IMG/VR virus record: IMGVR_UViG_3300031949_000005
Span: 103,641 to 167,640 of that record
DNA: 64,000 nt
Strand: one strand, 5' to 3'
Source of the DNA: a virus
Part shown: one piece after another, positions 2,137 to 39,214 of the stretch
Position numbering within the stretch: position 1 is the stretch's first letter
Layout: each line of letters opens with the position of its first letter
Translations under genes and position numbers: made by a program
Notes under the pieces: model-generated
What the model was told of the DNA's origin: nothing
Database searches by the model: none
What the model saw: only the letters and a program-made list of their open reading frames with translations

Positions 2137-5100
2137 ATGAGCGCTTCTGGTATATTAAGAGAAAATAACGTAATATTTTATCATCCATTAGATGATTTTA
2201 CAGAATACACACAAAATCAAACATGGACTGGTTCTGGAATGTTTGTTCCAGCTAAAATAATTAATGGTATAGCTGGTGTATTTTCTCCGAATATAACATG
2301 GGAATCAGAGGTCGAATTTTTCTCTTCGGATGGTGCTATAGAACCAGTAATTGCTAGATTGAATGATACCCAAGTTGTTGTTGTTTACAGAGATGGTGGT
2401 AATTTAATAAGTTCTAGAACATGGGCGCATGTCGGAACCATTACTGGTGATACAATAGTATGGGCAAGTGGATATGAAGTAATATCTAGTTTTGGTGCTG
2501 GTCTTGTTACATTAAATGCTGTATGTAGAGTTGCAGATGATAAATTTGCAATAGCTTTTAAAGATCCTTTATTTAGCGACCAACAACAAGCTGTTATTGC
2601 ATCTATTAGTGGAACAACTATCTCGTTCGGTACACCAGTATCATTTCAAACATTAAATAATAGCAATTTTGATATAACTTCTCCAGATGAAAGTCATATT
2701 GTTGTTGTATATCAAACTGCTACAAGTGGTAGCGCTGGTAATTCTAGGATTGGAAGTATAAGTGGTACTTCCCTTACTTTTGAAACTATAACTAATTTTC
2801 GAGAAGATGGTATTTCTAATGTTTTTGTCGAAAGATTAGATGATACACATGTAGTTGCTGCATATAGAGATACTAATCCAGATGGTGCTGGTTCTGTTGT
2901 TGTCGGTGCTATAAGTGGTACAACCATAACATGGGGATCTGGCATACAATTTGTCGCCAATACTCTTCAATCTTTTAGTGTCCTACCACTTGGTTCTACG
3001 AAATTTGGTATTATATGGACAGATGCTGGCACACAACTTAATGCTAAAGTTGGTGAAGTAAGTGGAACAACAATATCTCTTGGCAGTATAGCTACTCTTG
3101 CCGATGGAATAACATTAGCATTTTTAAGAGCACATGAAATAGATAGTGATCACTTTATTTGTGCTTTTCCTAATGCGAGTAATTCTAATAGACCTACCGT
3201 TAGTATAGGGTCATTAACAACTAGTGGTACAATAAGTTTTGGAGATATTTCTCTTGTAACCACTAATAGTGTGGTACATACAGATATTGTTACAACCGAT
3301 GGACATAAAGTTGTTATAGTTTACGAGGATACAACCGACTCAAACCATGGTACAGCTAATGTTGGTGCATTATTCGTTAGTGCGAATATAGTAGCTACTA
3401 GCGGAGGAGCTTATCCATCCGTAAGTGGATATGATAGAATAGTTCTTGGTGGGTGGTCTAAAAATCTATCCCATAATGATACAGAAGTAACAGTAAGTAA
3501 AGGTTATAGTGTTGGTATAGCTTCTGGTAGTATTTCATTAGGTAGTGGTGTATGGAATGGTTCTGGATTAGTAGATTTCTTGACATCTATAAACGATGGA
3601 AGTGGCCATTTATTTGTATTAGATTTTCATAATGACACTGGCGATGATTGGATACTTAATACATCTCTTGATGGAAGTGGTTTTATAAATCATGGGGTTC
3701 AATCATCCGGATCACAACCAATAATATTAGTAGAATCTGGTGTTCAATTAATAGCTATAAATAATGCTATGAATCACTGGATAGACGAATTAGTATTATG
3801 GGGTGGAGAACAAGATAATTTTTCAGATTTTAGTACCCATGAACTTAGAAGATTATTCAGATTAGCAGATTTCGCTGGTTTGACTATGCCCCTGTATTCT
3901 ACATTCGGTGAACCCATTAATGATAATACTACTTTATTTTTAACAGCACACGACATAACATCAGATAATATAACTTTATTTTCTCGGGGTATAGAAATTT
4001 CAACAGATGAGATAATATTATATCTTCGTGGTCCATTTTTCTTACCAGATGTTAGTGGTGTTATTTATTATCAACCGAATGACACCGATGACACAGAATT
4101 CACCAAACAAATACAATGGACTAATGATAATGTTTCATATATTCCATTAATAATTGATCAGGGCAATTTTGTTCAAACTTCTGGTAGATTATATAGTCCG
4201 AGTGGGAATTATTCATCACCAGATCAATACACTAATTTAACGGCATTATCATGGGTATCTGGAGTGAGATTTGATAATACGGAAATACAATTAGGATGGA
4301 TTGATAATAATTCTATATTGATTAATATTAGCGGAGTTAGTGGAGTCATACTAGGATTTTATGCATCTGGTATTAGATATGAGTTTCTATCACAATTTTT
4401 ACTTAATTTTGAGCCTACATTATTTGTAGCAAGAATAGAACAAGATGGGGCTAATTCAACAGGATATTTAAGTGTTGATGGTAATAGTTTTATACAAATG
4501 GGTCAAGTCTCTTCTGCACAATGGGATAATAGTGGACCAAATATAGGTAATAAATATATACAGTTATTATCGAGCGGTATGGCTGCCGACGAAACAACAT
4601 TATGGGGCAATATAGATCAATTCACATCATTAGAGCTTGTACAATTTTATGTTCTTGGAAGTGGGTTACAGTTACCATTAAATTATTATACCGATATTTT
4701 GGGATCTGGACTTCCGGTTAATAATAACATAGAACTATATATACAGGGTCCACTTCCGATAGATGAGTCAATAGACTTATATGTTCAAGGTCCGATTCCT
4801 ATTAACGATAATATAAATCTACATATTCATGGTTTTGATGATTTTAACGATAACTTCATATTAGTTGAAACTGGTCATGAAAGCTTTAACAATAGTATAA
4901 CATTGAATATTCACGGAATTACTAATAGATTAGTATCTATATATTGGACTGATCCAGGTAGTAATAAAATACAAAGATCGAATTCAAATGGTTCTAAAAT
5001 AGAAGATATAATAGATACAGATCTTATTACTCCACTGGGTATAGATATTGATTCTTCTAGTAGAAAGATTTATTGGTTGGATGATGGTATTTCCAAATTA

Positions 5101-6072
5101 CAAAGATCTAACCTTGATGGTACTTCTATACAAGATTTAGTGGTTAGTGGAATTAGTGGTTCAATTGGAATAGCTATAGATAGAACTATTAATAAGATAT
5201 ATTGGACCGACGATACTTCTAATGTTATTAAAAGATCAGATTTTAATGGCAGTAATGTTGAAACTATTGTATCTGGTTTAGAAAATGCTGTTAGTATAGC
5301 CATAGACACAATTAATGATAAAGTATATATTACCAATGGACCATCTGGTCTAGGGAGTGGTTTGATATCTCGTTTTGATCCAGATGGTTCTAATATTGAA
5401 ATAGTTATTTCTGGTCTGAATTCTCCGAGGGGTATAGACGTAAACAGTAGAGATGATCAAGTATTTTGGATTGATGATAATGGCAATTCCATTCATCGTG
5501 CAAATTCTAGTGGTATATTAGAACAAATATTAGTATCTGGCTTGACTGATGCAACAGAATTATCTCTTGATATAAATAATGGTAAATTATATTGGATTGA
5601 TCAAACCGAAGCCATAATTCGTAGAATGAATTTTAATGGCACGAATATAGAAGATATAATCACTAGTGGTCTTGTGTCGCCATATGGTATAGTCGTTAAT
5701 CAAAGAGAATCTATTGTTGATTTATCGGTAGAAATAGACATATTTATAAAAAGTTCTGATCATTTCCCGCAATTACTTGGTGTATTTAGTGATTCTGTAG
5801 TGTCGGTAACGATAGAGGTTTGGGATTTAATAGATGGTGCTAATATATTAGTAATCTTAGTTGATGATATTTGTCAACAAATAGGTGACACAGGAAGATG
5901 GTTCTGGTCAACGATTAATCTGCCGCCACATAGATTTGGTATTCAACAATATATGTACAAAATGAGTGCTGATAATGGAGAAGAATTTATAGCTGAGTTT
6001 TTCATTAAAAGCGCCGGGGTTAATATTCTTCAACACCCCTCGGATAGATCGAAATATATTTTAGGAGGTTAA
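2137..6072 (+). CDS. Large mosaic virion fibre/adhesin: LamG-like domains, 7-repeat propeller, 14-aa repeats, YWTD propeller, C-terminal module
   Basis: Seven ~50-aa repeats (VVVxYxD...GxISGTTIxFG); six YWTD-type blades (IYWTD, IYWLD, IYWTD, VYITN, VFWID, LYWID); IDELVLW and ADETTLW LamG-like ends. Confidence 0.7.
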   Translation: MSASGILRENNVIFYHPLDDFTEYTQNQTWTGSGMFVPAKIINGIAGVFSPNITWESEVEFFSSDGAIEPVIARLNDTQVVVVYRDGGNLISSRTWAHVGTITGDTIVWASGYEVISSFGAGLVTLNAVCRVADDKFAIAFKDPLFSDQQQAVIASISGTTISFGTPVSFQTLNNSNFDITSPDESHIVVVYQTATSGSAGNSRIGSISGTSLTFETITNFREDGISNVFVERLDDTHVVAAYRDTNPDGAGSVVVGAISGTTITWGSGIQFVANTLQSFSVLPLGSTKFGIIWTDAGTQLNAKVGEVSGTTISLGSIATLADGITLAFLRAHEIDSDHFICAFPNASNSNRPTVSIGSLTTSGTISFGDISLVTTNSVVHTDIVTTDGHKVVIVYEDTTDSNHGTANVGALFVSANIVATSGGAYPSVSGYDRIVLGGWSKNLSHNDTEVTVSKGYSVGIASGSISLGSGVWNGSGLVDFLTSINDGSGHLFVLDFHNDTGDDWILNTSLDGSGFINHGVQSSGSQPIILVESGVQLIAINNAMNHWIDELVLWGGEQDNFSDFSTHELRRLFRLADFAGLTMPLYSTFGEPINDNTTLFLTAHDITSDNITLFSRGIEISTDEIILYLRGPFFLPDVSGVIYYQPNDTDDTEFTKQIQWTNDNVSYIPLIIDQGNFVQTSGRLYSPSGNYSSPDQYTNLTALSWVSGVRFDNTEIQLGWIDNNSILINISGVSGVILGFYASGIRYEFLSQFLLNFEPTLFVARIEQDGANSTGYLSVDGNSFIQMGQVSSAQWDNSGPNIGNKYIQLLSSGMAADETTLWGNIDQFTSLELVQFYVLGSGLQLPLNYYTDILGSGLPVNNNIELYIQGPLPIDESIDLYVQGPIPINDNINLHIHGFDDFNDNFILVETGHESFNNSITLNIHGITNRLVSIYWTDPGSNKIQRSNSNGSKIEDIIDTDLITPLGIDIDSSSRKIYWLDDGISKLQRSNLDGTSIQDLVVSGISGSIGIAIDRTINKIYWTDDTSNVIKRSDFNGSNVETIVSGLENAVSIAIDTINDKVYITNGPSGLGSGLISRFDPDGSNIEIVISGLNSPRGIDVNSRDDQVFWIDDNGNSIHRANSSGILEQILVSGLTDATELSLDINNGKLYWIDQTEAIIRRMNFNGTNIEDIITSGLVSPYGIVVNQRESIVDLSVEIDIFIKSSDHFPQLLGVFSDSVVSVTIEVWDLIDGANILVILVDDICQQIGDTGRWFWSTINLPPHRFGIQQYMYKMSADNGEEFIAEFFIKSAGVNILQHPSDRSKYILGG

Positions 6073-6073
6073 A

Positions 6074-6409
6074 ATGGCTATACGCGAATATGATTATTTA
6101 CCGGATTCTCCAATATCTATAATCGGAGAATTAACTACGGGACAAACAGTTACTATTGAAGTTTGGCAAGATGGAGTTGCTGTGGTTTTAACAAGCGACG
6201 TATGTTCTGAAATAGACGCAACAGGAAAGTATAGTTGGTCCACCATTAATTTACCTGTCTTGCCAACCGATAGAGCGCAATATCACTGGAGAATGGATGA
6301 TGGTGCTGGTAATACTGTTGAAGATGATTTTATTTTACAATCTATAGAATCTACAGACGGCAAAATGCCTAGTTTAAGAGATCCAGATTCATATATTTTA
6401 CAAATATAA
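6074..6409 (+). CDS. Small virion protein, paralog of the C-terminal domain of 2137..6072
   Basis: Shared VTIEVW...C..I..TG...WSTINLP...QY...M...YIL pattern; GGAGG RBS. Confidence 0.65.
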   Translation: MAIREYDYLPDSPISIIGELTTGQTVTIEVWQDGVAVVLTSDVCSEIDATGKYSWSTINLPVLPTDRAQYHWRMDDGAGNTVEDDFILQSIESTDGKMPSLRDPDSYILQI

Positions 6410-6968: not shown

Positions 6969-7589
6969 ATGGCAAATACAAAATTGAGTGCATTGTCAGA
7001 GGCTATAGCGGCGTCGGGTATTGATGAACTCTATATAAATGAAAGTGGAGTATCAAAAAAAATTACGGGATTTCAATTAGCAAATTTTATTAATTCTAGT
7101 GGAATAATAAAATCTCTTTCTAGCGATGCGCCAGGTAATTCTTCGTCGAGTATGGTCAAGGTTTCTGGAATAGATGTTAGTGGAATTGGTCCTGGCACAT
7201 ATATTTTTCAATATTATATTAGTGCCCAATCTGCGCATATTTCTAACAGCATGAAATTTTCTGTTAACCACACCGGGACAACTACTCTTTTTATGTATAA
7301 CTTATTTTTTACACATCCCGCTGTTATAAACAATAACGTTGAATTGGATCAAGAATATAACGCAACAACAGGAGCAATCTGGGCAGTACAATCAACTAGA
7401 ATTAAAAATACAACACTAGGGCCACAAACTGCTGTTGATACAGCTAATGCTAGTCTTTTATATTATATTCATGGTATTATTATTGTTACAGAGACAGGTG
7501 TACTAGAATTATACCAAGGTTCTGAAGATAATGGTATTAACACAATTGTTGAACAAGGAACAACATTGATTCTTACGAAAGTTAGATAA
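6969..7589 (+). CDS. Short fibre-like virion protein, paralog 1 of 3
   Basis: MANTKLSAL..A.AASG.DE...NESGVSKK N-terminus shared with 8857 and 9583. Confidence 0.6.
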   Translation: MANTKLSALSEAIAASGIDELYINESGVSKKITGFQLANFINSSGIIKSLSSDAPGNSSSSMVKVSGIDVSGIGPGTYIFQYYISAQSAHISNSMKFSVNHTGTTTLFMYNLFFTHPAVINNNVELDQEYNATTGAIWAVQSTRIKNTTLGPQTAVDTANASLLYYIHGIIIVTETGVLELYQGSEDNGINTIVEQGTTLILTKVR

Positions 7590-8842
7590 TGATTGGAATA
7601 CTTCTTTTAGAAAGTAGTTTAGTAGATGGTCTACTTCTAGAAAATGTTAACGAGGTCTTATTCCTTGAATCATTTTCTTCCGATAATTTTATCAATTTAT
7701 TTATTCATTCAAGCCATACAATGGAATCTTTGGATTTATTTATAAAGGTTCCAGAACCAATTAATCAATCATTAGAATTTTTTATTAATGGATTTGATAT
7801 TAAATCAAATAACATTACTTTGTTTATTGATGGACATATTTCTAATACACAAAATATAAATTTATTTATAAATGGTAAGAATGTTTTTAATAATGATATT
7901 ATATTATTTATTAGTACTTTTAATATAGACGCTAATATGATGGATCTTTTCATATCTGGTCCAATACGAATTACAGATAATGTTTCACTATTTATTAACG
8001 GGATGGATTTACAGAATGATAATATAAATCTTTTTATTCATGGTAATAATAATTTCAATAATAATATTAATTTGTTGATTAACGGGCTTAATAATAATAA
8101 CAAATCGCTAGAACTTTTTATTTATGGGTTTGATATTAAACCAAATAATATTATTTTGTATGTTAATGGACATGTTGATAATTCAAGTAATATAATACTC
8201 GTAATTAACCCTCATGCTGTGATAGATGATAATATAACTTTATTTATACGACCACCACAAGAAGCATCATCTATTAGTTTAATAATTAATGGAATTATTC
8301 CAATTCTTCCATTATCTTGCCCGATATTAGATCCAAATTCAACAATACAAATACCTTCTACTCTTATAACTATATATCAATCTTATATTGATTCTCTTAT
8401 AAACCAATTGGGTAAACACGTTCTACTAGAATTTGATTCTGTGTTAACACCTTGTCCTAACTGTGAATTTGATTTAATTAACCAAAGATCAAGAGGAATT
8501 TATATTTCTGGTGGACCCATATCATTTTCAAGAGGTAGTCAATGTCCATATTGTAAGGGGAATGGTTTGCTAGAAACAAAATCAGAAAAATGTATTATTG
8601 CTTTAACCAAATGGAGTCCAAAAGAAATTAATGATTTTAATATTTCTGTTAATAATGATAAAGCTATTGTTAGATTAAAAGCATTTTTATCAGAATCAGA
8701 TAATTTAATAAGAGCTAAAACAGCCATAATAGAATATGACCAAAGATCGTTAGTTGTTATGAGGGCTAGGATGATTCGTGGAATTGTTCCAATAGGCTTA
8801 AGAGATGATAGATATTGTACGAGTTATTGGGAATTGATTTAA
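7589..8842 (+). CDS. Virion protein with ~15 x 14-aa repeats and a C-terminal CxxC...CxxC (neck/head-closure-like) domain, paralog A
   Basis: LLLE leader, xxDNIxLFIxG repeats, CPNC...CPYCKG domain ending YCTSYWELI. Confidence 0.65.
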   Translation: MIGILLLESSLVDGLLLENVNEVLFLESFSSDNFINLFIHSSHTMESLDLFIKVPEPINQSLEFFINGFDIKSNNITLFIDGHISNTQNINLFINGKNVFNNDIILFISTFNIDANMMDLFISGPIRITDNVSLFINGMDLQNDNINLFIHGNNNFNNNINLLINGLNNNNKSLELFIYGFDIKPNNIILYVNGHVDNSSNIILVINPHAVIDDNITLFIRPPQEASSISLIINGIIPILPLSCPILDPNSTIQIPSTLITIYQSYIDSLINQLGKHVLLEFDSVLTPCPNCEFDLINQRSRGIYISGGPISFSRGSQCPYCKGNGLLETKSEKCIIALTKWSPKEINDFNISVNNDKAIVRLKAFLSESDNLIRAKTAIIEYDQRSLVVMRARMIRGIVPIGLRDDRYCTSYWELI

Positions 8843-10298: not shown

Positions 10299-12221
10299 AT
10301 GGGCAGATATTTATTAGAAAATAGTTTTATAGATGGTTATCGCCTAGAAGATGATGGTGGGGTTCTGCTTCTTGAATCATTTTCTATTAATGATTCTATA
10401 ACTTTATTTACATTTAGTTCGGCGATAGAAACCGATAATATAGAATTATTTATTAATGGGAAGGATTCACAAAATAATGATTGTGATCTTTTCATTGATG
10501 GTAAAGATTCATTAAACGAAAATTTCAATTTAATAATAATCGGTAATGATAATTTTAATAATAATGCTGATTTATTAATAAAAGGTCTGGATAATCAAAC
10601 AGATAATATTGATTTATTTGTACATGGAAAAAATTCAGAAAATAATAATATTAATTTATTTATAAATGGCCAGATATTTTTCACCAATAATATAAATCTA
10701 TTTATTTCTGGAATTGTGGGCACAACGACAATTACGGATAATATAGATTTATTTATCAATGGTCATAATAGTTTTAATAATAATATAGATTTATTTATAG
10801 GTGGTAAAGATAATAAAAATGATAATATATCATTATTCATCAATGGTTCTGATGCTGCAAATGACAATATTACACTTTATATAAATGGGCGTGAAACAGA
10901 TAATGAGAGTATAGTTTTATTTATAAATGGGTTTGATACTGAATCGGATTCAATAACACTTGTAATATTATCGTCGAACGAAGCAACTGATAATATTGAA
11001 TTATTTATATATGGAAACGAAGAATTTAATACTTCGTTAGATCTTTTTATACATGGACTAAATTCAGACAATAATCAAATCAATTTATTTATAAATGGAC
11101 ATGTTTCCAATACACAAAATATAGATTTATTTATAAATGGACACGAGGAACAGAATAACAATATAACTCTATTTATTGCTGATGTAAATATATTATCTGA
11201 TTCTATTGATTTGTTTATAAGCGGACCAATAATTTTTAATAATAATTGTATTTTATTTATCCATGGATTTAATGAAAATAATAATGATTGCAATTTAATA
11301 ATTAATGGACATGAATCAAATAATGATAATATTAATTTATTCATTGCTGGTCTGGATTCGCAGAATAATAACATAAATCTTTTTATATCTGGTTCTGTTA
11401 TAACAAATACCCAGTCCGAACAAATAGATTTAATTATATTTGGTAAAAATACGAATAATCAATCCGTCGATTTAATTATTCTTGGCTCTGATACAAATTC
11501 TAATAATATAGATTTATTTATAGAGGGGTCCAATTTTATTGATAATAATCTATCACTTTTTATCTCTGGGCCGATTTCTGTAAATAATAATATTGATTTA
11601 TTTGTGTCTGGTATTACGAGTATAATACCCTCAACTTCTGGAAATATTTTATTAATAATCAATGGTATACAACCAATCGCCCCGGTGGTCTGCCCCGTAT
11701 TAGATCCAAATTCTGCTATTCAAATAGGCGATGATCTTATAAATATATACCAATCTAGAATAGATGCATTAATAGATCAGCTTGGTAAACATGTTTTGAT
11801 AAATTTTGATCCTATTAAAGAAATATGCCCGAATTGTCTTTTTGATACTTTTGGCGGAAGATCTATAGGTACATATAAAATTGGGGGACCGACGCCATTC
11901 CCAAGAGGTCAAAAGTGCCCATATTGTAAGGGACACGGATTCTTAATAACAGAAAGACAAAAGTGTATAAAAACATTGATAAAATGGAATCCAAAAGATG
12001 CTGCTAATTACGGAATATCTGTTAGGAAACATAGAGATATCGTGAGATTCAAAACATTTGCAACAGAGTTTGATGATTTAGTAAGAGCAAGATCGGCAAT
12101 ATCTAACTCGGCTATTTCCGATATTATAAAATTAAAGGTAAGGTTAATTAGGAGTCCGATATTGGTTGGCTTGAGAGAATCTCGATATTGCATAAGTTTT
12201 TGGGAATTGATTGATGATTAA
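10299..12221 (+). CDS. Virion protein with ~30 x 14-aa repeats and a C-terminal CxxC...CxxC domain, paralog B
   Basis: Same architecture as 7589; CPNC...CPYCKG domain ending YCISFWELIDD. Confidence 0.65.
   Translation: MGRYLLENSFIDGYRLEDDGGVLLLESFSINDSITLFTFSSAIETDNIELFINGKDSQNNDCDLFIDGKDSLNENFNLIIIGNDNFNNNADLLIKGLDNQTDNIDLFVHGKNSENNNINLFINGQIFFTNNINLFISGIVGTTTITDNIDLFINGHNSFNNNIDLFIGGKDNKNDNISLFINGSDAANDNITLYINGRETDNESIVLFINGFDTESDSITLVILSSNEATDNIELFIYGNEEFNTSLDLFIHGLNSDNNQINLFINGHVSNTQNIDLFINGHEEQNNNITLFIADVNILSDSIDLFISGPIIFNNNCILFIHGFNENNNDCNLIINGHESNNDNINLFIAGLDSQNNNINLFISGSVITNTQSEQIDLIIFGKNTNNQSVDLIILGSDTNSNNIDLFIEGSNFIDNNLSLFISGPISVNNNIDLFVSGITSIIPSTSGNILLIINGIQPIAPVVCPVLDPNSAIQIGDDLINIYQSRIDALIDQLGKHVLINFDPIKEICPNCLFDTFGGRSIGTYKIGGPTPFPRGQKCPYCKGHGFLITERQKCIKTLIKWNPKDAANYGISVRKHRDIVRFKTFATEFDDLVRARSAISNSAISDIIKLKVRLIRSPILVGLRESRYCISFWELIDD
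10386..11670 (+). repeat. Degenerate 42-nt (14-codon) tandem coding repeat, ~30 units
   Basis: Units such as QTDNIDLFVHGKNS and ENNNINLFINGQIF; similar arrays at ~7679-8297, 3916-4035, 4717-4920, 29421-29800 and 31006-31703. Confidence 0.85.
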
Positions 12222-12236: not shown

Positions 12237-12929
12237 ATGGCTAAAATAACATTAATACCAACTCCGCAATTTAATCAACAACTAAGTATTGGTGTAAGAT
12301 CCGATATCAAGAATAGAATTATTGGTCGTGCTTTATTAAAAGGTAATACAATAGTATCTTCTGTTGGAAACATGTTGGCTGATTTATTAGACAATAATGA
12401 TGTTATTAAATCATTAAGAGGCAACGGAAGTGTTGATTTGGCGGCACATTTTGGTTTAACAGATAGTCAATCAAATGGATTAGCAGATGGAATGATATCG
12501 TTGGTTAGAAAATCTGTTAAATTTATTTTCAATAATCAATCAGATATTATTATAGGTATTAGGGCTGTTCCTAGTGATTTTACTGAATTTTTATCATTAC
12601 CAGGAGCAGAATATGTTTCTAAATCTTCTAATATTGTTATTCCTGTATTAAGATGGTTATTGATAGATCCAGATATTGATATTGGTGCTGCTGCATTCGA
12701 TATTGTTTTTTCTGGAGATTTTTCTGGTAAATTTGATACAACTATTAATAAGGTTTCACGAAGCGGAAGAGCCGTTATGATAGAATTACAAAAATTGGGA
12801 AAAAATACTGGTTATATTTTACCGGATATTATTAGGGGGAATTTTGGTGAAAATTTCATTGAATTCGCCCTGGGTCAAGAACAAGTTAGATTAAATGCTG
12901 CTAATATATTAATGGAGAATATACGATAA
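12237..12929 (+). CDS. Putative neck/tail-completion protein
   Basis: Position in the neck module; coupled to the next gene (TAATG). Confidence 0.4.
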   Translation: MAKITLIPTPQFNQQLSIGVRSDIKNRIIGRALLKGNTIVSSVGNMLADLLDNNDVIKSLRGNGSVDLAAHFGLTDSQSNGLADGMISLVRKSVKFIFNNQSDIIIGIRAVPSDFTEFLSLPGAEYVSKSSNIVIPVLRWLLIDPDIDIGAAAFDIVFSGDFSGKFDTTINKVSRSGRAVMIELQKLGKNTGYILPDIIRGNFGENFIEFALGQEQVRLNAANILMENIR

Positions 12930-13867
12930 TGAGTTTTGATTTTAGGGGTATAGCGAGTGGTGGATTTGGAGGCTATGAACTCACAGATCAATTATTATAT
13001 AATTTGAAATTTTTCTTGGAATGGGGATTATTGAATAATGGTGCATATACTAGCTATCAATTTAATTCTTCTAGTTTTTATGATTTAGACGAAGCTAAAT
13101 TGCATTCGGTAATAGATGAAAGATATCCTGATGGTCAAGTATGGGAAGGTATAGGTCCAGAATGGGTTTGGGAAACTGGTGTAACACCACCATCTGGGGG
13201 TACTGCCCCATTTAGGGTATCCGGCGTATATATTAATAATATTTTTTATGGTCAATCTTCTTCTATTTCTGGTATATTTGGTCATCATATAGATTATCCA
13301 AATGCCAGAATAATATTTGATAATCCACAGAGCATTACCGATGATATAAGGGCTGAATTTACCACCAAAATGGTTAAAGTAGGACTAGCTGATTCTTTAG
13401 AATTTAGACAATTATTATTAGATGCTGTAGAAGAATTTCTAACCGATACCGTTCCATCTGGTACACCAGTCAGAGATCATCAGGCATGGCTACCAGCTAT
13501 TTTTATTGATGTCGATTCTGGTAGACAAACCGGGTTACAATTAGGTGGAGGACAGATAAAAACAAGAATTATTAGTTTCCATATATTCGCAGATAATGCT
13601 TATCAAAGAAATTTATTAATGGACTGGTTAGATTATCAAAGTAGGACTGTATTTTGGATGGCGGATTTAAATGCTATACCATTTCCGTTCGATCAATATG
13701 GGGATATAATCACTGGAACTACTAATTGGTTGGATTTAACAAATAATTTTCCATGGAAAAAATTAAGGGTTTTAGATGGTAAGATACAAAAAATTAATTC
13801 TTTAAATACACGTATTTTTAGAGCTAAGGTAATTTGGCAATTAGAAGTGGACTTTGGAAATATATAG
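12929..13867 (+). CDS. Putative tail terminator-like protein
   Basis: LPAIFID...GLQLGGG...ISFHIFA...RNLLMDWL pattern, just upstream of the tail tube. Confidence 0.5.
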   Translation: MSFDFRGIASGGFGGYELTDQLLYNLKFFLEWGLLNNGAYTSYQFNSSSFYDLDEAKLHSVIDERYPDGQVWEGIGPEWVWETGVTPPSGGTAPFRVSGVYINNIFYGQSSSISGIFGHHIDYPNARIIFDNPQSITDDIRAEFTTKMVKVGLADSLEFRQLLLDAVEEFLTDTVPSGTPVRDHQAWLPAIFIDVDSGRQTGLQLGGGQIKTRIISFHIFADNAYQRNLLMDWLDYQSRTVFWMADLNAIPFPFDQYGDIITGTTNWLDLTNNFPWKKLRVLDGKIQKINSLNTRIFRAKVIWQLEVDFGNI

Positions 13868-13887
13868 CTTGAGTTGCATAAAATTTG

Positions 13888-13896
13888 GTGTATAAT
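13888..13896 (+). promoter_or_regulatory. GTGTATAAT promoter motif, probable leaderless start
   Basis: TATAAT ends 5 nt before ATG 13902; no SD. Confidence 0.6.
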
Positions 13897-13901
13897 ATAA
13901 T

Positions 13902-14747
13902 ATGAATAAATTAAGATCAGATACATGGCAACCCAATGAAGAAATAGCCTCTTCTATTATAGAAAAATATAATAATGGAAAATCAGCATTAGCCCTATGT
14001 CATCAATATGGTGTGGCCGATGTGACTATTACCAAATTTTTAAAAAGAAACAATATTAAAATACGAAATGCTAGTAATGCCCGAAGAACGAATCAAATTA
14101 ATGAAAATATTTTTGATGATATTAATGAAGAAAGTGCCTACTGGATAGGTTTTATTCTATCTGATGGGAATATTTATTATCCCCAAAAGAGATCAAAACA
14201 ATTAAATTTCGGCTTAAAAAAATCTGATTGGGAACATCTGGAAAAATTCAAGAAATTTATTGGATCTAATAAACAATTATATTATAATAATAATGCTGTA
14301 TTTTTAAGTATTTATTCAAATAAAATAGTGGATAAATTAGAAGAATTTAATATAACTCCTAGAAAAAGTAAAACAGCAAAAATTCCAGTATGTTTGAAAA
14401 ATAATAGGCATTTTTGGAGAGGTATGGTCGATGGGGATGGATGGGTATCATGGGGAAATAATAGTAATCCTACAATAGGAATATGTGGAACATTCGATAT
14501 AATAAATAATTTTCGAAAATTTGTAAATAAAGATAATAAAATAATTAAAGAAACAGAATCTGGTTGTTACTCTATTGTTTTTGCGTGTGCTACTTCTGTG
14601 CCAATATGTAAAAGACTATATGATCATTCGACCATATATTTAGATAGGAAATTATCTATGGCGAAACTAATTTGTAACCATTATAATTTGTGTATAAATG
14701 ATAGTATGATAGCGATAAAAGAAAAGGGTGATATAAATGGCAAGTAA
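13902..14747 (+). CDS. Free-standing LAGLIDADG homing endonuclease
   Basis: AYWIGFILSDG and HFWRGMVDGDG motifs, N-terminal HTH, YLDRK near the C-terminus. Confidence 0.85.
   Translation: MNKLRSDTWQPNEEIASSIIEKYNNGKSALALCHQYGVADVTITKFLKRNNIKIRNASNARRTNQINENIFDDINEESAYWIGFILSDGNIYYPQKRSKQLNFGLKKSDWEHLEKFKKFIGSNKQLYYNNNAVFLSIYSNKIVDKLEEFNITPRKSKTAKIPVCLKNNRHFWRGMVDGDGWVSWGNNSNPTIGICGTFDIINNFRKFVNKDNKIIKETESGCYSIVFACATSVPICKRLYDHSTIYLDRKLSMAKLICNHYNLCINDSMIAIKEKGDINGK
14690..14699 (+). promoter_or_regulatory. GTGTATAAAT promoter motif for the tail tube gene
   Basis: Inside the 3' end of the endonuclease ORF, about 40 nt before ATG 14737. Confidence 0.5.
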
Positions 14748-15786: not shown

Positions 15787-15808
15787 ATAGTACAACAATA
15801 GTATAAAG

Positions 15809-15841
15809 AATAGGGGCCGGTTATCCGGCCTCTATTTTTTT
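15809..15841 (+). terminator. Rho-independent terminator
   Basis: AATAGGGGCCGG-ttat-CCGGCCTCTATT followed by a T run. Confidence 0.85.
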
Positions 15842-16461: not shown

Positions 16462-16466
16462 GAAAC

Positions 16467-17309: not shown

Positions 17310-17310
17310 T

Positions 17311-28295: not shown

Positions 28296-31200
28296 ATGGC
28301 AAGATTAATTACAGCCGGTTTTGAAACTGGAATCAATCAAGAACTTTTTGCTAATCCCGATGTCGTTGCTACTACAATTACTGTAACTAATGGTGCTGGT
28401 CCAACAACATCTCAGGCTAAAAATGGTAATTATTCGTTAGCTTGTTTGAGTACACAACAAATAGCATTTGACCCAAAAGCAACAACAAACGAAGATGTTT
28501 TCTTTTGGAAGTTTTGGTTATTATATGAAAACGTAAGCGGACATGTAGATAGAACTATATGGAAAGATAGTGCTGCTGCATTAGGATATCATGCTAGACT
28601 ATGGATGAATACTAGTGGTCAATTGGTTTGTCAGGGGGCAAGCGATGGCGTTGCTATTGTTTCTGGAACAATGGTTCTTACCTCTGGCGTATGGTATGAA
28701 ATACAAATAGAATATAAAACATCTAATACTGGTTATATTAAAGTTTGGATAAATGGCGATTTAGAACTCAGTAATACTACAGACACAAAAAGAAGTACGG
28801 TATCACAGGGTAAATGGGAATTAGGACATACAGATGTCGGAAATAATTATTATTATGATGATATATTCTTAAATGACGAAGATACGTCTATAGAAAACTC
28901 AACCATCCCACTTGGACAAAAATTAGCATTTTTTATAGTAACCAGTGATGGTGATTTAGAACAATGGACTACTGTAAATCCATCAACCGCAGATCATTAT
29001 ACCAACGTTGACGAAATACCATTCTTTGTTGGTCTTGCTACTAGTACAGATAGAATAACATCTACCACATCTGGACAAGTAGACTTATTCAATTTAGATC
29101 AAATATCTGATGATATAACTTCTGAGTCAACTATTGATTATATTTATGTTCATGCTACAACAACACATAGTTCCGCCGCAAGACAAAGAGGGACTATTAG
29201 ATTAAGTAGCATGAATTTTACATATGGTACTGATTCTGGTTCCAATGGAACAAGTTTGAGACATAAATATGCTGTTTGGAGTACTAACCCATCCACATCT
29301 CTTCCGTGGATAAATACTGAATTAGATTCTATACAAATAGGTACAACATTGACAGCCGCTGGCGGAACAGCGCAACTTGGTAATATAGGGCTTTATGTTG
29401 AATACATAACTATTCCTACTATTAATGATAATATTACATTATATATGCAGGGTCCAATAGAACAAACAGATAATATCACTCTTGTTATATCTGGTCCAAT
29501 ACAAATCACTGATAATATTACATTATTTATAAATGGACATGAGACTAATAATGATAATATAACATTGTTTGAAAATGGACATGTAGATTTTAATGATAAT
29601 ATAAACTTATTTATAAATGGTCAAGATACTGAATCAGATAATATAACACTCTTTATTGGTGAACAAATATTCTTATTCAACGATAATATTGATTTATATA
29701 TACAGGGACCAATACAAGAAACCGATAATCAAACTTTATTTACACATGGACTAGATTCAGAAAATGATAACATAAACTTATTTGTTACTGGGCCAATAGA
29801 TTCTATAAAGATAGAAATTTTTAGACAATCTGTCAATACTTCTTCTGGTATACAAGATTTAATAAAAACAGATTTTGGTTTACCTAAAGCTGCTTTATTA
29901 TTTTTATCACGATCAGATACTGATGGTGTTTCAGATAATGATGCATGTTTTTCTATTGGTATCGTAGATAGTGAAAGACAAAGATCATTGGGTGTTAGTT
30001 CTGCCCATGGAGTAACCCCAACACTAACAAGGCAAATATTTAGTAGTCAAAAATGTATATTAATTCTTGATCCACAATCTGGGGTATTAGAAGCATCGGC
30101 GGAATTAGTTGAATTTATCGAAGATGGTATAAGAATTAATTGGTTAGAAGCGCCTTCTGGTGCTTATTTATTAAATGTAATATTATTTGGTGGAGAAAAT
30201 CTTAATGCTTATGTAAATACTTTTGGTACTCCTGCCGTAGTTAATAATTCAATTAATATTGGAGATCCTGGTTTCGAACCCGATCAATTGATTTGTTTCG
30301 GTAGACGAACAGGCAACGAAGATGTTATATCTAATGGTCCAACATATTCTCTTGGTCTTGCTGATAATGGCGCTACTTTAAAACAAAGATCAGTAGCATT
30401 TTTCAGCCCAAATTCTTCTGTGTTTGGCGAAGTAGCAGGACTAGTTAGAGAAGATTATATACTAAGTTTCTCCACTTTATCAACCATATTGAATTCGGCA
30501 GAAATTACTGCATTTAGCTCAAGTGGATTTACGGTATTTACTAGGGTGTCAAATGGTAGTGTTAGTGGTGCTTATCTGGCTCTTAGCTATAATGATGAGG
30601 TCCAACATTGGATTGACACTGTTCAGACGCCAACATCTCTTGGACAAACATCCTTCACTGGTCCAGGGTTTAAACCATCTTTTGTATTACAATTATTTTC
30701 TAGGATTAATACATTAAATACTATTAATGCTTCGGATAATGCTGCCTCAAAAGGTATAGGCATTTTTACAAATCCAACAGAATTTAGTTCAACAATATCC
30801 GAAAATTATGGATCTAATCCGACAGATACACAAAGCTTAAACGATAATCAGGCTGTTAATTTTCCATTTTCTGATGGATTAAGCGGTGTTGTTGCTTCAT
30901 TTGTATCAATGGACGTAAGTGGATGGACTTTAGATTTTTCTTCAGTAGATCTTACGTCTAGTAAATTCATGTCTTTGGCTGTCGAAGCAATACCCGTATT
31001 TGAAATAAATGATAATATAACATTATTTATAGTTGCTTCTGGCGAAACACAATCGTGGAATTTATATCTCGAAGTTGGACCGAATGATCTTACTAACACT
31101 ATAGAATTATTTACATACGGATCTCCAAGTGGAACATCATTTAGTTTTACATCCGATGATATAAATTTATATCTAGAATGTCAAGCAGATGAAGTAACTT

Positions 31201-31706
31201 TTCCTCCACAAGATAATATCAATAATACATTATTTCTTCAGGTAGCTTCTGGTAATTTCGACAATACCGGCTCATGGACATTATTTTTAAATTCCGATAC
31301 CAGTATATCAGATAGTTTAGATCTTAGAATAAAAGGTCATGCTTCTGGTTCGCTACCTAATGGAATAGATTTTAATGATGCTATAACATTATTCATAAAA
31401 AGAATTCCCGATTTTCCTGCACAAAATGGTTTTACGCCAACATTTGATAAATGGAATTTGTTTTTAAGGGTTCCAGATGGTTCTTTTGGTAATATAACAT
31501 TATTTATTTCTGGTGTTCCCTTGAGCGGTATATTAATTAATAATAATATTAATCTTTTTATTAATGGTTTTGATAATATAGATGAATTTAATACTTTATA
31601 TATATATGGTATTTCAGGATTTATTGATAATAATATAACTCTTTATTTGGATTCTATAGTTAATCCAGATGTTAATAATGTGAAATTATATACTCATGGA
31701 TTTTAG
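28296..31706 (+). CDS. Large tail fibre/adhesin with a LamG-like N-domain and 14-aa repeats
   Basis: WYEIQI...IKVWING...YYDDI; GFxP-type repeats; two blocks of xxDNIxLFIxG; ends LYTHGF. Confidence 0.65.
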   Translation: MARLITAGFETGINQELFANPDVVATTITVTNGAGPTTSQAKNGNYSLACLSTQQIAFDPKATTNEDVFFWKFWLLYENVSGHVDRTIWKDSAAALGYHARLWMNTSGQLVCQGASDGVAIVSGTMVLTSGVWYEIQIEYKTSNTGYIKVWINGDLELSNTTDTKRSTVSQGKWELGHTDVGNNYYYDDIFLNDEDTSIENSTIPLGQKLAFFIVTSDGDLEQWTTVNPSTADHYTNVDEIPFFVGLATSTDRITSTTSGQVDLFNLDQISDDITSESTIDYIYVHATTTHSSAARQRGTIRLSSMNFTYGTDSGSNGTSLRHKYAVWSTNPSTSLPWINTELDSIQIGTTLTAAGGTAQLGNIGLYVEYITIPTINDNITLYMQGPIEQTDNITLVISGPIQITDNITLFINGHETNNDNITLFENGHVDFNDNINLFINGQDTESDNITLFIGEQIFLFNDNIDLYIQGPIQETDNQTLFTHGLDSENDNINLFVTGPIDSIKIEIFRQSVNTSSGIQDLIKTDFGLPKAALLFLSRSDTDGVSDNDACFSIGIVDSERQRSLGVSSAHGVTPTLTRQIFSSQKCILILDPQSGVLEASAELVEFIEDGIRINWLEAPSGAYLLNVILFGGENLNAYVNTFGTPAVVNNSINIGDPGFEPDQLICFGRRTGNEDVISNGPTYSLGLADNGATLKQRSVAFFSPNSSVFGEVAGLVREDYILSFSTLSTILNSAEITAFSSSGFTVFTRVSNGSVSGAYLALSYNDEVQHWIDTVQTPTSLGQTSFTGPGFKPSFVLQLFSRINTLNTINASDNAASKGIGIFTNPTEFSSTISENYGSNPTDTQSLNDNQAVNFPFSDGLSGVVASFVSMDVSGWTLDFSSVDLTSSKFMSLAVEAIPVFEINDNITLFIVASGETQSWNLYLEVGPNDLTNTIELFTYGSPSGTSFSFTSDDINLYLECQADEVTFPPQDNINNTLFLQVASGNFDNTGSWTLFLNSDTSISDSLDLRIKGHASGSLPNGIDFNDAITLFIKRIPDFPAQNGFTPTFDKWNLFLRVPDGSFGNITLFISGVPLSGILINNNINLFINGFDNIDEFNTLYIYGISGFIDNNITLYLDSIVNPDVNNVKLYTHGF

Positions 31707-37591: not shown

Positions 37592-38215
37592 ATGTCATTA
37601 TCTATATATGTAGGTGAAGATCAATTATTGCCGTCTACTTCTGGTATTGGATTTTTCGGAGAAGATGGTTTTGGATCTCCTGTCCTAATAGGAGAATACC
37701 AAGGAAGAACTTTTGTAACAAATTCCAGTGGTACTATTGAGGGATTTGAATGTAATAATAATAGATTTGTATCATTATCTGGCGTTATCAATGGTCAAGA
37801 TGGTTCGGGAATAACTTTAACAAGTTTGCCCAATAGATTAGCTACAATCAATATAAGATTAGAAACACCAAATGTCGTAAGAACTTTAAATGGTAGATTT
37901 TATATTTTTGATGGTACTTTTAATGGTTCTAACCCTAATATAGATAACGATCCTTCTGGCTTAACATGCTATTGTGCTGAAATAAGACATACCAGCGATA
38001 TACAGGACGACGACGGTGTTGGCGATACAGAATGGTTTGATACCCATGGGTCAACATTTCTTGCAACTATTAGTTCACCTGGTTCTGGCGGATTTAGACC
38101 AGATGGTAGTTTAACATTGGATACAAGGCACGACTGGTATATCTCTATAACCGTAACGCCAATACAGTTTGGAAATAAAGAATTTGGAATGTATTTTGAG
38201 GTAGAATATTTATAA
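37592..38215 (+). CDS. Virion structural protein, paralog of 38573
   Basis: SGIGFFG..GFGSPV.IGEYQ..TFVTN...SSPGSGG...DTRHDWY...FGMYFEVEYL. Confidence 0.65.
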   Translation: MSLSIYVGEDQLLPSTSGIGFFGEDGFGSPVLIGEYQGRTFVTNSSGTIEGFECNNNRFVSLSGVINGQDGSGITLTSLPNRLATINIRLETPNVVRTLNGRFYIFDGTFNGSNPNIDNDPSGLTCYCAEIRHTSDIQDDDGVGDTEWFDTHGSTFLATISSPGSGGFRPDGSLTLDTRHDWYISITVTPIQFGNKEFGMYFEVEYL

Positions 38216-38517: not shown

Positions 38518-38528
38518 GTGTATAAAAT
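38518..38528 (+). promoter_or_regulatory. GTGTATAAAAT promoter motif
   Basis: Intergenic, ahead of GAGGAG and ATG 38573. Confidence 0.55.
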
Positions 38529-38572
38529 ACTGTGATATTAGATTAAATTGTTTTAATTGAGAGGAGAATATA

Positions 38573-39214
38573 ATGGCGGCTGCTATTGATTTTTTTGCTG
38601 GTTCTGGAAGTAATGAGATAGACTTAGCAGGTTCTGGTCTTGGGTTTTTTGGTGCTACATTTGGTTCGTCTGTACAAGTTAGTCAGTATCAAGATACCAC
38701 ATTTATTACAAACGGCGTTGGTTCTGTTAACGGCGGACAGGCCGATAACCTAAAATATGTCGGCACAACTAGCGGCGTTAGTATTAATGGTGGCGCAACC
38801 GTCGATTTAACCACGGTGCCACAAGTTTCTGGTACATTAAATACTAGATTTACTTTCGACACTGTTGTTAAGACACAAAATGGTGAATTAAGAATTTATG
38901 ATAGAACTACGATTGATAATGGTCCCAGCGGTGTTACGTGTAGAGCCTCCCAGATAGTCAATGGCGGATCAGGCGTTAATCCAACAACTGGTGCAGCACA
39001 AACATGGAATGCTGGTGATGATGGTTGGAGAGTCTTAGCTGGTTCTGGAACAACTATGCGATTACTAGCAGCCCCAGGAAGCGGCGGATTAAGCCCAAGC
39101 GGCGTTGATACCACGGATACTAGACATGATTGGTATGCGGCGTTATCGGCTTCTCCCGACAGCATCGGGTCCAAGACATTATTCGGACTTTATGTTTCAC
39201 TTGAATATCTTTAA
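38573..39214 (+). CDS. Virion structural protein (probably abundant), paralog of 37592
   Basis: GSGLGFFG..FGSSV.V.QYQ.TTFITN...APGSGG...DTRHDWY...FGLYVSLEYL; own promoter and terminator. Confidence 0.65.
   Translation: MAAAIDFFAGSGSNEIDLAGSGLGFFGATFGSSVQVSQYQDTTFITNGVGSVNGGQADNLKYVGTTSGVSINGGATVDLTTVPQVSGTLNTRFTFDTVVKTQNGELRIYDRTTIDNGPSGVTCRASQIVNGGSGVNPTTGAAQTWNAGDDGWRVLAGSGTTMRLLAAPGSGGLSPSGVDTTDTRHDWYAALSASPDSIGSKTLFGLYVSLEYL

Follow-up and report, generated by a model that had tools for sequence, protein, structure and literature searches.

In an uncultured 168-kb phage (the focal genome, G000) and its relatives, proteins of the outer head, tail tube and fibres carry Ser-Gly pairs at exposed turns two to three times as often as expected; to judge by sequence, these pairs may be attachment points of a phage-made sugar coat or only a favoured turn shape. 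We analysed a 64,000-nucleotide stretch of this genome (the window; Table 1), for which a sequence-only reading had proposed that the outer proteins carry a two-residue sequon and that the virion is coated with a modified, possibly sulfated glycan. To our knowledge, a Ser-Gly sequon has not been described from any bacterium or phage.

The Ser-Gly counts of that reading were all reproduced exactly. In its nine selected proteins, 108 pairs were observed and 40.7 expected (pooled observed/expected ratio, o/e, 2.65; z 10.5); of all 400 dipeptides none is more enriched, and the next has a z of 4.6. Gly-Ser (o/e 1.23), Thr-Gly (0.88) and Ser-Ala are all far exceeded, Asn-Gly and Asp-Gly stand at 1.19 and 1.16, and Ser-Gly itself has an o/e of 1.07 across the remainder of the genome; non-virion phage proteins, at 1.0-1.3, do not avoid it. 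Residue shuffles of individual proteins gave p values of 0.0002 to 0.04. Chance, a nucleotide-level artefact or selection bias in that first reading might be suspected, since the nine proteins were chosen after counting and orthologues are not independent samples, but such an origin is effectively refuted. The Fisher combined p, with one representative per unrelated family, is 1e-12; in a shuffle screen of 129 G000 proteins of at least 150 aa, made without preselection, the seven lowest p values belong to seven virion-module proteins; and TCTGG/AGTGG is found 90 times in the frame that encodes Ser-Gly, against 2-3 times in the other frames. Because of this frame specificity, and because the excess persists in genomes spanning GC 31% to 48%, it is a feature of the proteins and not a DNA motif.

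Six relatives whose genomes are complete or nearly so (GC 37-48%) show the excess too, and when the entire structural block is taken without selection, Ser-Gly ranks first in six of the seven genomes (z 3.3-9.6). In T4 virion proteins the top z for any dipeptide is 4.0, and the Ser-Gly o/e is 1.13. The bias that had been read from a comparison of outer proteins with the tape measure is real and specific to the virion module, although the tape measure (6 observed, 11.8 expected) is a confounded internal control because tape measures are helical.

Table 1. Features of the window (SG and NG, dipeptide counts as observed/expected unless stated; o/e, observed/expected ratio)
Feature	Position	Strand	Details
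Major capsid protein gene, 3' end	3..338	+	343 aa, start upstream of window; synteny with relatives
1311-aa fibre-like protein	2137..6072	+	SG 39/13.9
Short fibre paralogue 1, 206 aa	6969..7589	+	SG 5/2.0
417-aa fibre of 14-residue repeat N-I-x-L-F-I-[N>S]-G	7589..8842	+	SG 2/1.9, NG 7/2.6
Short fibre paralogue 2, 238 aa	8857..9573	+	SG 7/1.4; PHROG tail-fibre matches
Short fibre paralogue 3, 237 aa	9583..10296	+	SG 7/2.6; PHROG tail-fibre matches
640-aa fibre, about 20 copies of 14-residue repeat	10299..12221	+	Six SG
312-aa neck or tail protein (p312), just upstream of tube gene	12929..13867	+	SG 6/1.8, Gly-Ser 0
Candidate late promoter TGTGTATAA	14689..14697	+	Further copies at window 1738, 37565, 38517
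Tail tube protein, T5 pb6 / P74-26 duplicated type, 349 aa	14737..15786	+	SG 8/4.1
Tape measure protein, 1607 aa	23469..28292	+	PHROG TMP families, E to 4e-35
1136-aa multi-module tail protein, after tape measure	28296..31706	+	SG 21/8.9, evenly spread
Three tail-tip proteins, 575, 845, 522 aa	31718..37564	+	Lineage-pooled SG o/e 0.87, 0.41, 0.42
207-aa Gly-rich distal protein (p207)	37592..38215	+	SG 6 (expected 2.6), Gly-Ser 6
213-aa paralogue of p207 (p213)	38573..39214	+	SG 9 (expected 3.4), Gly-Ser 9
Conserved block p284, GT2, p257, p155, GT1a, GT1b, GT1c	41161..50184	-	Pfam; same order, six relatives
Extra gene in block, G000 only, 187-aa protein	42002-42565		
GT2	42555-43310	-	Passes Pfam cut-off
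GT1a	44514-45533	-	GT1/GT4, passes Pfam cut-off
GT1b	45535-46716	-	GT1/GT4, passes Pfam cut-off
Extra gene in block, G000 only, 195-aa protein	46659-47246		Paralogue in sugar island
GT1c, intein-bearing	47293-50184	-	GT1/GT4, passes Pfam cut-off
Sigma-70-like factor, SSB, DNA polymerase III alpha fragment	50168..52945	-	Pfam; synteny
Strain-specific sugar island	52952..63533	-	Pfam; gene island absent from relatives spans 52952-63999
GDP-mannose 4,6-dehydratase (GMD), sugar island	59678-60676	-	Pfam
DegT-type aminotransferase, sugar island	60687-61784	-	Pfam
Weak sulfotransferase-like gene, sugar island	62229-62975	-	Below Pfam cut-off

The tube protein, p312, p213 and the head cement protein belong to unrelated families and together have 27 pairs against 10.2 expected; BLASTP found no similarity among the first three, the cement protein, whose gene lies upstream of the window, being outside that comparison. 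Foldseek matches the tube protein to T5, DT57C and P74-26 tube chains (E 4e-6, from a low-confidence model, pLDDT 57), and five of its eight sites are invariant and a sixth altered in one genome. The lineage-pooled o/e of p312 is 2.18, with three sites invariant or nearly so in seven genomes; five or more of the six relatives retain the serine at seven of the nine p213 sites; and homologues of the 1311-aa protein (27-34% identity) retain an o/e of 2.1-2.9, with Thr-Gly depleted. The earlier statement that the sites occur in unrelated folds holds for several families but is only partly true, because the 1311-, 417-, 640- and 1136-aa proteins share repeat modules and the three short fibres, like p207 and p213, are paralogues; in this last pair Gly-Ser equals Ser-Gly. 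There was no enrichment in the major capsid protein (2 observed, 1.7 expected; lineage-pooled o/e 0.58), the portal (o/e 1.13), the three tail-tip proteins or the 417-aa fibre.

The Ser-Gly serines are placed at strand ends and turns. The 1311-aa protein begins with a disordered N-terminus, a beta-propeller (about 50-420) and a beta-sandwich; 14-residue repeats follow at about 565-940, then a YWTD propeller at about 1000-1200 and finally a C-terminal domain. Its N-terminal domain matches sialidase propellers by Foldseek. Each of the 19 pairs within residues 1-560 falls in a loop, in a two-residue turn or at the end of a strand. Four of this protein's pairs recur at one and the same hairpin from propeller blade to propeller blade, in an Asp-box-like motif (I-S-G-T-T-I-[ST]-[FWL]-G), and four more lie in YWTD blades. 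Flanks are hydrophobic or small, [VAI]-S-G-[VILT], and conservation is higher for Gly than for Ser, as it is in any turn. Five of the six pairs of the 640-aa fibre are at repeat positions where Asn is commoner, and Ser is not required in the repeat, since the residue before Gly is mostly Asn, with Ser a minority alternative (N 16, S 8, Q 4, H 3). The core of the 1136-aa protein (about 504-900) corresponds to a module of about 420 aa that is widespread in phages. Distant homologues of this core have a Ser-Gly o/e of 0.87, with TG, AG or NG at the lineage's Ser-Gly positions and X-G already at four of seven core sites; with the T4 value, this indicates that the excess does not come from the fold as such.

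Together with the paralogy and shared modules, and with the lack of enrichment in capsid and tail-tip proteins, these features suit a purely structural explanation: Ser-Gly would be the lineage's preferred tight beta-hairpin turn, bulge or blade motif, unmodified, spread by paralogy and module shuffling and kept by purifying selection, and the glycosyltransferases described below would act elsewhere, for example on host envelope glycans or lipid-linked intermediates, DNA or host proteins. We take this to be a serious possibility, at about one chance in three. It offers no reason, however, for unrelated families to converge on Ser. The tube, cement protein, p312, p213, propeller and fibres prefer Ser over Asn, Asp and Thr before Gly; that preference is limited to this lineage's virion proteins, which exceed both T4 and the distant homologues in Ser-Gly, and the 1311-aa protein without its blade and repeat sites still has about 29 pairs against 13.9 expected.

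Substitution patterns also bear on this point. Conservation of the Ser-Gly serine exceeds that of its flanks by 0.21, against -0.01 for the X of other X-G pairs (p 0.003) and -0.13 for other serines (p 0.0002), so that these serines are conserved islands amid variable flanks, which speaks against a purely structural origin. They change to Thr or Ala in 7% of cells, as opposed to 24% for other serines. Where they are replaced, the substitutes are E, N, T, Q and D; this suggests a surface location and, with the strand-end and turn placement, argues against their being mostly buried. The same signature (virion-specific, Ser-specific, in conserved islands) would also fit selection on the virion surface for some other cause: phosphorylation, acylation or ADP-ribosylation of Ser by phage or host, or a physico-chemical property, for instance if turns that are small, hydrophilic and chemically stable suit particles that persist for long in water. 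In favour of this, nothing ties the glycosyltransferases to proteins. We nevertheless think it unlikely. Selection against deamidation-prone turns does not explain the pattern, because neither Asn-Gly nor Asp-Gly is depleted, and a candidate kinase or other Ser-modifying enzyme was not found among the window's Pfam matches.

A conserved glycosyltransferase block is convergent with the end of the tail module. Its proteins are all predicted to be soluble, and its enzymes, one GT2 and three phage-type GT4, are syntenic in all relatives. The sequence-only reading had counted at least six glycosyltransferase-like genes; these four pass Pfam cut-offs and two GT11-like paralogues in the sugar island fall below them. 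The matches are to generic GT4/GT2, with no sign of a protein acceptor. None of the glycosyltransferases has a transmembrane segment, and a multi-pass Wzx/Wzy/WecA-like protein was looked for and not found, so the acceptor is likely cytoplasmic; a ThyA-type hydroxymethylase, for a glycosylatable DNA base, was likewise looked for and not found. Because the whole lineage has both bias and enzymes, and GT1b does not occur outside it, their co-occurrence in every relative is phylogenetically confounded and discriminates nothing. The island also encodes three methyltransferases and a cupin. Its genes have no orthologues in the six relatives except GMD (38-44% identity), which lies elsewhere in the genome, just upstream of a small-terminase-like gene and TerL in all six. 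A sulfotransferase-like gene is indeed present, albeit below the cut-off, but the suggestion of a modified, possibly sulfated glycan depends on an island found in none of six relatives, whereas the Ser-Gly bias is lineage-wide.

That Ser-Gly turns are glycosylation acceptors is our leading explanation, held tentatively, at somewhat less than an even chance. On this view the pairs occupy tight, solvent-exposed turns in outer virion proteins rich in beta structure, namely the head cement protein, the neck and tail fibres, the tube and the distal tail proteins. A minority, in propeller blades, YWTD blades and the 14-residue fibre repeat, are ordinary structural positions, and the other turns would accept Ser-specific O-glycosylation in the cytoplasm. 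We infer that the lineage's conserved soluble glycosyltransferases act on proteins, that Ser-Gly is what they read, and that the donor would be a GDP-6-deoxyhexose made through GMD; addition before or during assembly would give a glycan coat, with sulfated or methylated elaboration in this strain only. The proposed sequon and coat are partly supported: the homologue and surface comparisons agree with them, but the enzyme association is uninformative. Against the acceptor reading, enrichment is lacking in the capsid, the portal and three tail-tip proteins, some sites are in plainly structural repeats, and the propeller sites lie within a longer conserved blade motif. The candidate late promoter, moreover, precedes the tube, p207 and p213 genes and has no copy in front of the glycosyltransferase block, which is grouped with the sigma, SSB and Pol III genes; these continue its transcription direction and are not directly downstream of any late gene.

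Asp-boxes of sialidase-type beta-propellers have the motif S-x-D-x-G-x-T-W. Like them, the blade motif of the 1311-aa protein is a short Ser/Gly/Thr/aromatic element found once per blade on an exposed hairpin, and Asp-boxes are conserved for folding, not modification; its consensus differs, however, and it covers only 4-6 of the 108 sites. Animal proteoglycan xylosylation shares the Ser-Gly dipeptide and the use of Ser rather than Thr, but the analogy drawn earlier fails on flanks, which are acidic in proteoglycans, and on enzymes: a second SDR that might be a UDP-xylose synthase was not found, there is no GT14-like enzyme, and the sulfotransferase-like gene is weak and strain-specific.

Virion glycosylation of mycobacteriophages, a precedent for the acceptor reading, was reportedly described by Freeman et al. 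in 2023. According to two accounts, Che8, Corndog and Myrna glycosylate their virions with phage-encoded enzymes, whose genes, as here, are located outside the structural operon, and, if our reading holds, in both systems a glycan coat would be built on subunits of the outer head and the tail tube (PMC12619734, PMC11256854). In the mycobacteriophages the glycans are at the C-termini of capsid and tube subunits, whereas the candidate sites here are dispersed Ser-Gly turns (PMC12619734, PMC11256854); unlike in those phages, as there described, the major capsid protein is not enriched and fibres and cement protein are included. Chloroviruses and giant viruses, according to a review, glycosylate capsids with their own sugar-nucleotide and transferase genes, by cytoplasmic particle decoration at non-canonical sites, but they infect eukaryotes, their glycans are N-linked to the major capsid protein, and their enzymes are unrelated (PMC9614988). 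TibC and AAH, acting on TibA and AIDA-I, are GT9-type iron-containing dodecamers using ADP-heptose, in contrast to the GT4 and GT2 enzymes and GDP-sugar pathway here, and the other mapped site in TibA is Ser-Ala, so that Ser-Gly is no defined sequon there (PMC4358343). The resemblance, which makes this a second precedent for the acceptor reading, is that of a soluble cytoplasmic GT-B enzyme hyperglycosylating many Ser in folded beta-solenoid turns: within a beta-helix TibC heptosylates Ser and leaves Thr alone, and one of its sites is Ser313, in ..N-S-G-G.. (PMC4358343).

All of the Ser-Gly (SG) counts from which the sequence-only reading had proposed a glycan acceptor motif were reproduced. 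Pooled over the nine SG-rich proteins it had picked, 108 SG dipeptides are observed and 40.7 expected (observed/expected, o/e, 2.65; z 10.5), the second most enriched dipeptide reaching a z of only 4.6, and residue shuffles of the individual proteins gave p-values from 0.0002 (the 1311-aa fibre-like protein, 2137-6072) to 0.04. The excess of SG over GS, TG and SA was also borne out (o/e 1.23, 0.88 and 0.87 for the latter three), and SG o/e is 1.07 in the remaining 220 ORFs of the genome; within the set, GS is as frequent as SG in the proteins at 37592 and 38573 (p207 and p213). As the nine proteins had been chosen after counting, all 129 proteins of at least 150 aa were screened by shuffling: the seven lowest p-values all belong to virion-module proteins, among them a 155-aa cement protein, and combining one representative per unrelated family gave a Fisher p of 1e-12. 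We regard chance as a highly improbable source of the excess. Elsewhere in the genome, a single non-virion protein has a nominal SG excess (5 vs 1.5 expected, p 0.01).

The signal is at the protein level. TCTGG and AGTGG pentamers total 90 in the reading frame that encodes Ser-Gly, as against 2-3 in each of the others, a frame specificity that rules out a DNA-level motif as the cause, and avoidance of NG or DG is ruled out as the driver since neither is depleted in the nine proteins (1.19 and 1.16). Two parts of the original argument fared less well. The assertion that the sites occur in unrelated folds is partly right, but BLASTP showed repeat modules common to the proteins starting at 2137, 7589, 10299 and 28296, and paralogy both among the three short fibres and between 37592 and 38573. 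The SG-poor tape measure had been offered as a control, and it is a poor one because tape measure proteins are helical, which confounds the comparison.

The window forms the final 64 kb of a 167,640-bp virus record (GC ~31%) that CheckV rates as complete. No cultured relative was found by megablast of the tail region or tblastn of the tube protein against 50,697 phage records, tblastn of the glycosyltransferase GT1a against the same records returned a single weak partial match, and a pattern scan of viral contigs yielded no relatives of the 1136-aa tail protein. Eighteen IMG/VR loci were recovered with an alignment of 1311-aa protein homologues, and six relatives were taken whole (five complete or nearly so, 160-180 kb; one ~84% complete, 140 kb; GC 37-48%). 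The 155-aa protein, whose gene lies immediately before the window, passes the gathering score of Phage_cement (PF22758; 35.8 bits vs a cut-off of 27), while PDB sequence searches with it, a profile search included, returned nothing. The tube protein has >5,000 database relatives, the matches listed having identities of at least 66% and including no distant homologues; its model may correspond to the T5 pb6 / P74-26-type duplicated tube fold in Foldseek (E 4e-6 to 5e-3, TM 0.35-0.49), although with a pLDDT of only 57 it is too poor for placing the tube SG sites.

When SG o/e was pooled over the lineage for each orthologous group, enrichment was seen for the cement protein (3.35), the 1136-aa (2.39, expected 107) and 1311-aa (2.30, expected 83) families, p213 (2.25), the tube (2.20), p312 (2.18), the fibres built of a 14-residue repeat (about 1.8) and p207 (1.72). 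The major capsid protein (0.58), terminase (0.84), portal (1.13), tape measure (0.71) and the tail-tip proteins p575 (0.87), p845 (0.41) and p522 (0.42) are not enriched. SG is nonetheless the top dipeptide of the whole, unselected structural block in six of the seven genomes (z 3.3-9.6), and in the 1311-aa family TG falls to 0.3-0.65. Outside the lineage the excess disappears: pooled T4 virion proteins have SG at 1.13 and GS at 1.11, with no dipeptide exceeding a z of 4.0, and the T4 fibres gp34 and gp37 have 12 SG against 7.1 expected and 9 against 12.2, respectively. For the 1136-aa protein, the median SG o/e among its best 150 library homologues is 0.96, and stand-alone versions of its core (n=75, ~420 aa each) have a pooled value of 0.87, compared with a mild enrichment (7/4.6) in the core of the protein encoded here. 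One of these seven core sites is also SG in the majority of distant homologues; at four others these homologues have TG, AG or NG, the Gly being retained, and the closest relatives have SG. Because the T4 and distant-homologue controls lack the excess, the bias is generic neither to fibres nor to the 1136-aa core fold.

SG sites are dispersed in all of the proteins (in the tube, at residues 24-221 of 349) and have small or hydrophobic flanks, [VAGI]-S-G-[VITL], with V, A, G, I, T or P at position -1 and V, I, T or L at position +2. Residues 1-560 of the 1311-aa protein were modelled with AF2 (pLDDT 72) as a beta-propeller and a beta-sandwich, with Foldseek matches to sialidase and WD40-type propellers, and all 19 SG sites of this region are predicted to lie at strand ends, in two-residue turns or in loops. 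In the model, S158, S209, S260 and S309 occupy the same hairpin in successive blades, each ending a long strand before a two-residue turn. The blade motif, I-S-G-T-T-I-[ST]-[FWL]-G, is an Asp-box-like structural motif kept in homologues at ~30% identity; four further SG sites fall in the YWTD blades of the same protein. The Gly of the 14-residue repeat (N-I-x-L-F-I-x-G) is preceded by N 16 times, S 8, Q 4 and H 3, so that Ser is merely one option. Clearly structural sites of these three kinds account for ~20 of the 108 SG dipeptides. Four virion proteins have this repeat, N-I-x-L-F-I-[N/S/Q/H]-G-x6, in up to ~20 tandem copies; it has no Pfam or PHROG family and probably represents a module of a beta-solenoid or of a fibre shaft. 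Directly after the 1311-aa gene, a gene encodes a 111-aa protein 38% identical to residues 1223-1309 (the C-terminal domain) of its neighbour, which may be a stand-alone copy of a fibre tip or assembly domain.

Most SG sites in the cement protein, p312, the tube, p213 and p207 are invariant across the seven genomes, at 48-71% identity; in the tube, S24, S29, S119, S129 and S183 belong to the invariant set. Ser conservation is 0.50-0.83 in SG vs 0.25-0.53 for other Ser, and Thr or Ala replaces Ser in 7% of alignment cells for SG vs 24% otherwise. The replacements of SG Ser are mostly E, N, T, Q and D, as would be expected for surface positions. The flanks are conserved below average, and Ser-minus-flank conservation is +0.21 for SG and differs from that of both comparison classes, the X residues of X-G sites other than SG (-0.01; p 0.003) and the remaining Ser (-0.13; p 0.0002). 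The SG excess is real and under selection, is specific to virion proteins and to Ser, and stands out from the controls outside the lineage. Some other surface-selected cause is improbable, though less so than chance. A purely structural cause, which we consider a possibility to be entertained but rather doubted, accounts for the turn positions and repeat motifs, for the non-enriched capsid and tail-tip proteins, and for the observation that Gly is conserved more than Ser at SG sites, as in any turn. It leaves unexplained, however, why at least six unrelated families of one lineage have converged on Ser before Gly. That convergence would be accounted for if SG were a glycosylation acceptor, a reading to which we give serious if less than even credence.

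On the enzyme side, the claim of at least six glycosyltransferase-like genes was trimmed to four that pass Pfam cut-offs (GT2 and three GT1/GT4); two "GT11-like" genes do not, and the sulfotransferase-like gene falls short as well (Sulfotransfer_3, 24.1 bits vs a cut-off of 27) and lacks an orthologue in the six relatives. PDB searches on the latter three proteins added nothing. The genes for p284, GT2, p257, p155, GT1a, GT1b, GT1c, sigma factor, SSB and Pol III alpha form a block that is syntenic in all seven genomes and faces the end of the tail module in convergent orientation. Similarities are generic, to GT4 and GT2 only, PDB sequence searches returning generic GT4 matches or nothing; GT1c clusters with almost purely viral GT4, and GT1b orthologues are confined to the lineage. 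Since every relative has both the SG bias and the glycosyltransferase genes, and GT1b is found only in the lineage, a test of their co-occurrence is uninformative, and the association is phylogenetically confounded.

GDP-mannose 4,6-dehydratase (GMD) is encoded directly upstream of a terminase-small-like gene (~170 aa) and TerL in all six relatives; in the genome studied here it lies elsewhere, inside a sugar island whose genes are interleaved with NUMOD4/HNH endonucleases. Together with the DegT aminotransferase of the island it constitutes a GDP-perosamine-like pathway. Island counterparts in the six relatives are limited to GMD (at another place in every one), the cupin (29%, one relative) and one methyltransferase (25-26%, two relatives). 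The "methylated, sulfated" elaboration is therefore strain-specific whereas the SG bias is lineage-wide.

Other substrates for these enzymes were considered. Against a phage-made exported polysaccharide, no transmembrane segment is predicted in any glycosyltransferase or sugar protein and the genome encodes no multi-pass Wzx/Wzy/WecA-like protein. DNA glycosylation is made less likely by the presence of ThyX only, with no ThyA-type hydroxymethylase in the genome. The glycosyltransferases might also act on host lipid-linked intermediates. Glycosylation of SG would fit a conserved set of soluble glycosyltransferases accompanied by neither export machinery nor a DNA-base pathway, and it has precedents in the glycosylation of mycobacteriophage virions and in the Ser-not-Thr modification of turns by TibC. 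A mixed truth may be most likely.

Several further features of the region were noted (see table). The motif TGTGTATAA(A/T) is found at a distance of 25-55 nt ahead of structural genes that include those for the portal, tube, p207 and p213. Of its eight copies in the genome, seven are on the late strand, which makes it a candidate late promoter, one that may be recognized with the help of the phage sigma factor. It is not found in front of the glycosyltransferase block. LAGLIDADG-type inteins are present in GT1c, as an intein is in several of the genomes, and in TerL. In one relative, G005, the GMD ORF is 714 aa long with a split Pfam match, which suggests that GMD is a third intein target in the lineage. 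In a 580-aa ORF, the finger and HhH domains are all that is present of DNA polymerase III alpha, a polymerase apparently split or encoded piecemeal. Just upstream of 16848, a stretch resembles a tRNA T-arm and 3' acceptor end (…GGGAGTTCGATTCTCCC-GCCTCCA); ARAGORN called no tRNA in 15700-20300, and the element may be a tRNA fragment or minihelix. The gene before GMD and terminase in relatives has a C-terminal SEC-C-like Cys motif (…C-x-C-G-S-G-x-K-Y-K-x-C-C), and its homologue here has moved into the tail region.

Coordinates of features in the window and in related genomes (window positions unless a genome is named)
Feature	Position	Strand
Head module end, neck/fibre cluster, tail tube, inserted non-structural patch (PhoH and others), tape measure, tail-tip genes	1 to ~41 kb	+
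Glycosyltransferases, sigma factor, SSB, Pol III alpha fragment, methyltransferases, homing endonucleases, sugar-nucleotide enzymes	41-64 kb	-
14-residue repeat	7589-8842; 10299-12221; 28296-31706 (res 379-500, 1066-1090); 2137-6072 (res 864-885)	
111-aa gene	6074-6409	+
TGTGTATAA(A/T) copies	1738, 14689, 37565, 38517; genome 98455, 101036	+
tRNA-like element	~16780-16847	+
SEC-C-like gene, homologue here	21186-22310	
SEC-C-like gene, relatives	G003 23950-25128; G007 24177-25301; G005 12782-13906	
GT1c with intein	47293-50184	-
TerL with intein	genome 95091-98453 (upstream of window)	
GMD ORF of G005	G005 14098-16242	
Sigma factor	50168-50782	
580-aa Pol III alpha ORF	51203-52945	-
Sugar island: GMD, DegT aminotransferase, three methyltransferases, two GT11-like paralogues, weak sulfotransferase-like gene, cupin	52952-63999	-
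Non-virion protein with nominal SG excess	genome 13312-14349 (outside window)	-

Our fullest proposal, which we put forward tentatively and with more doubt than confidence, is that in these abundant uncultured aquatic siphophages (~140-180 kb) bare Ser-Gly on exposed beta-turns would be a Ser-specific sequon read by phage-specific soluble GT4/GT2 enzymes, placing a deoxyhexose-containing glycan on cement protein, tube and fibres, and that islands differing between strains would diversify the coat, in this genome through amino-sugar, methyl and perhaps sulfate genes. If SG turns are acceptors, they would provide a readable sequon and a function for widespread and unexplained phage-specific GT4 families, and would add a further level of chemistry to the particle surface of phages that are very common in the environment. 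Such chemistry might influence adsorption, grazing, stability and immune recognition. Were the bias only structural, it would still be a clean case of a lineage-specific turn code and a caution against taking Gly/Ser/Thr motifs on phage fibres as sequons.

To our knowledge, a few mycobacteriophages are the only phages whose enzymes have been shown to glycosylate the virion, and we know of no sequence rule for this. In the mycobacteriophage precedent (PMC12619734, PMC11256854), capsid and tail-tube subunits have the acceptor region at their C-termini, as summarised in PMC12619734. As in that type, the glycosyltransferases here (GT2 and three GT1/GT4, conserved in six relatives) are encoded by the phage genome; unlike it, the major capsid protein is SG-poor (o/e 0.58) and the tube sites, at 24-221 of 349, are not C-terminal. 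The analogy first drawn to the Ser-Gly sites of animal proteoglycans was not upheld: the flanks have no acidic enrichment, neither a UDP-xylose supply nor a xylosyltransferase was found, the single PF16363-type dehydratase/decarboxylase in the genome being GMD, and the glycosyltransferase matches are to GT1 and GT2 only. TibC hyperglycosylates Ser, not Thr, in beta-solenoid turns (PMC4358343), and SG at 2.65 vs TG at 0.88 would, at the level of dipeptide statistics, parallel TibC/AAH. Unlike for these BAHT enzymes, no GT9 family is among the Pfam matches of the window's minus-strand proteins. Finally, the blade motif departs from the Asp-box consensus S-x-D-x-G-x-T-W, having I-S-G-T-T-I-[ST]-[FWL]-G in its place, but like the Asp-box it occurs, in the AF2 model and with Foldseek matches to propellers, once per blade at the same hairpin of a propeller fold.
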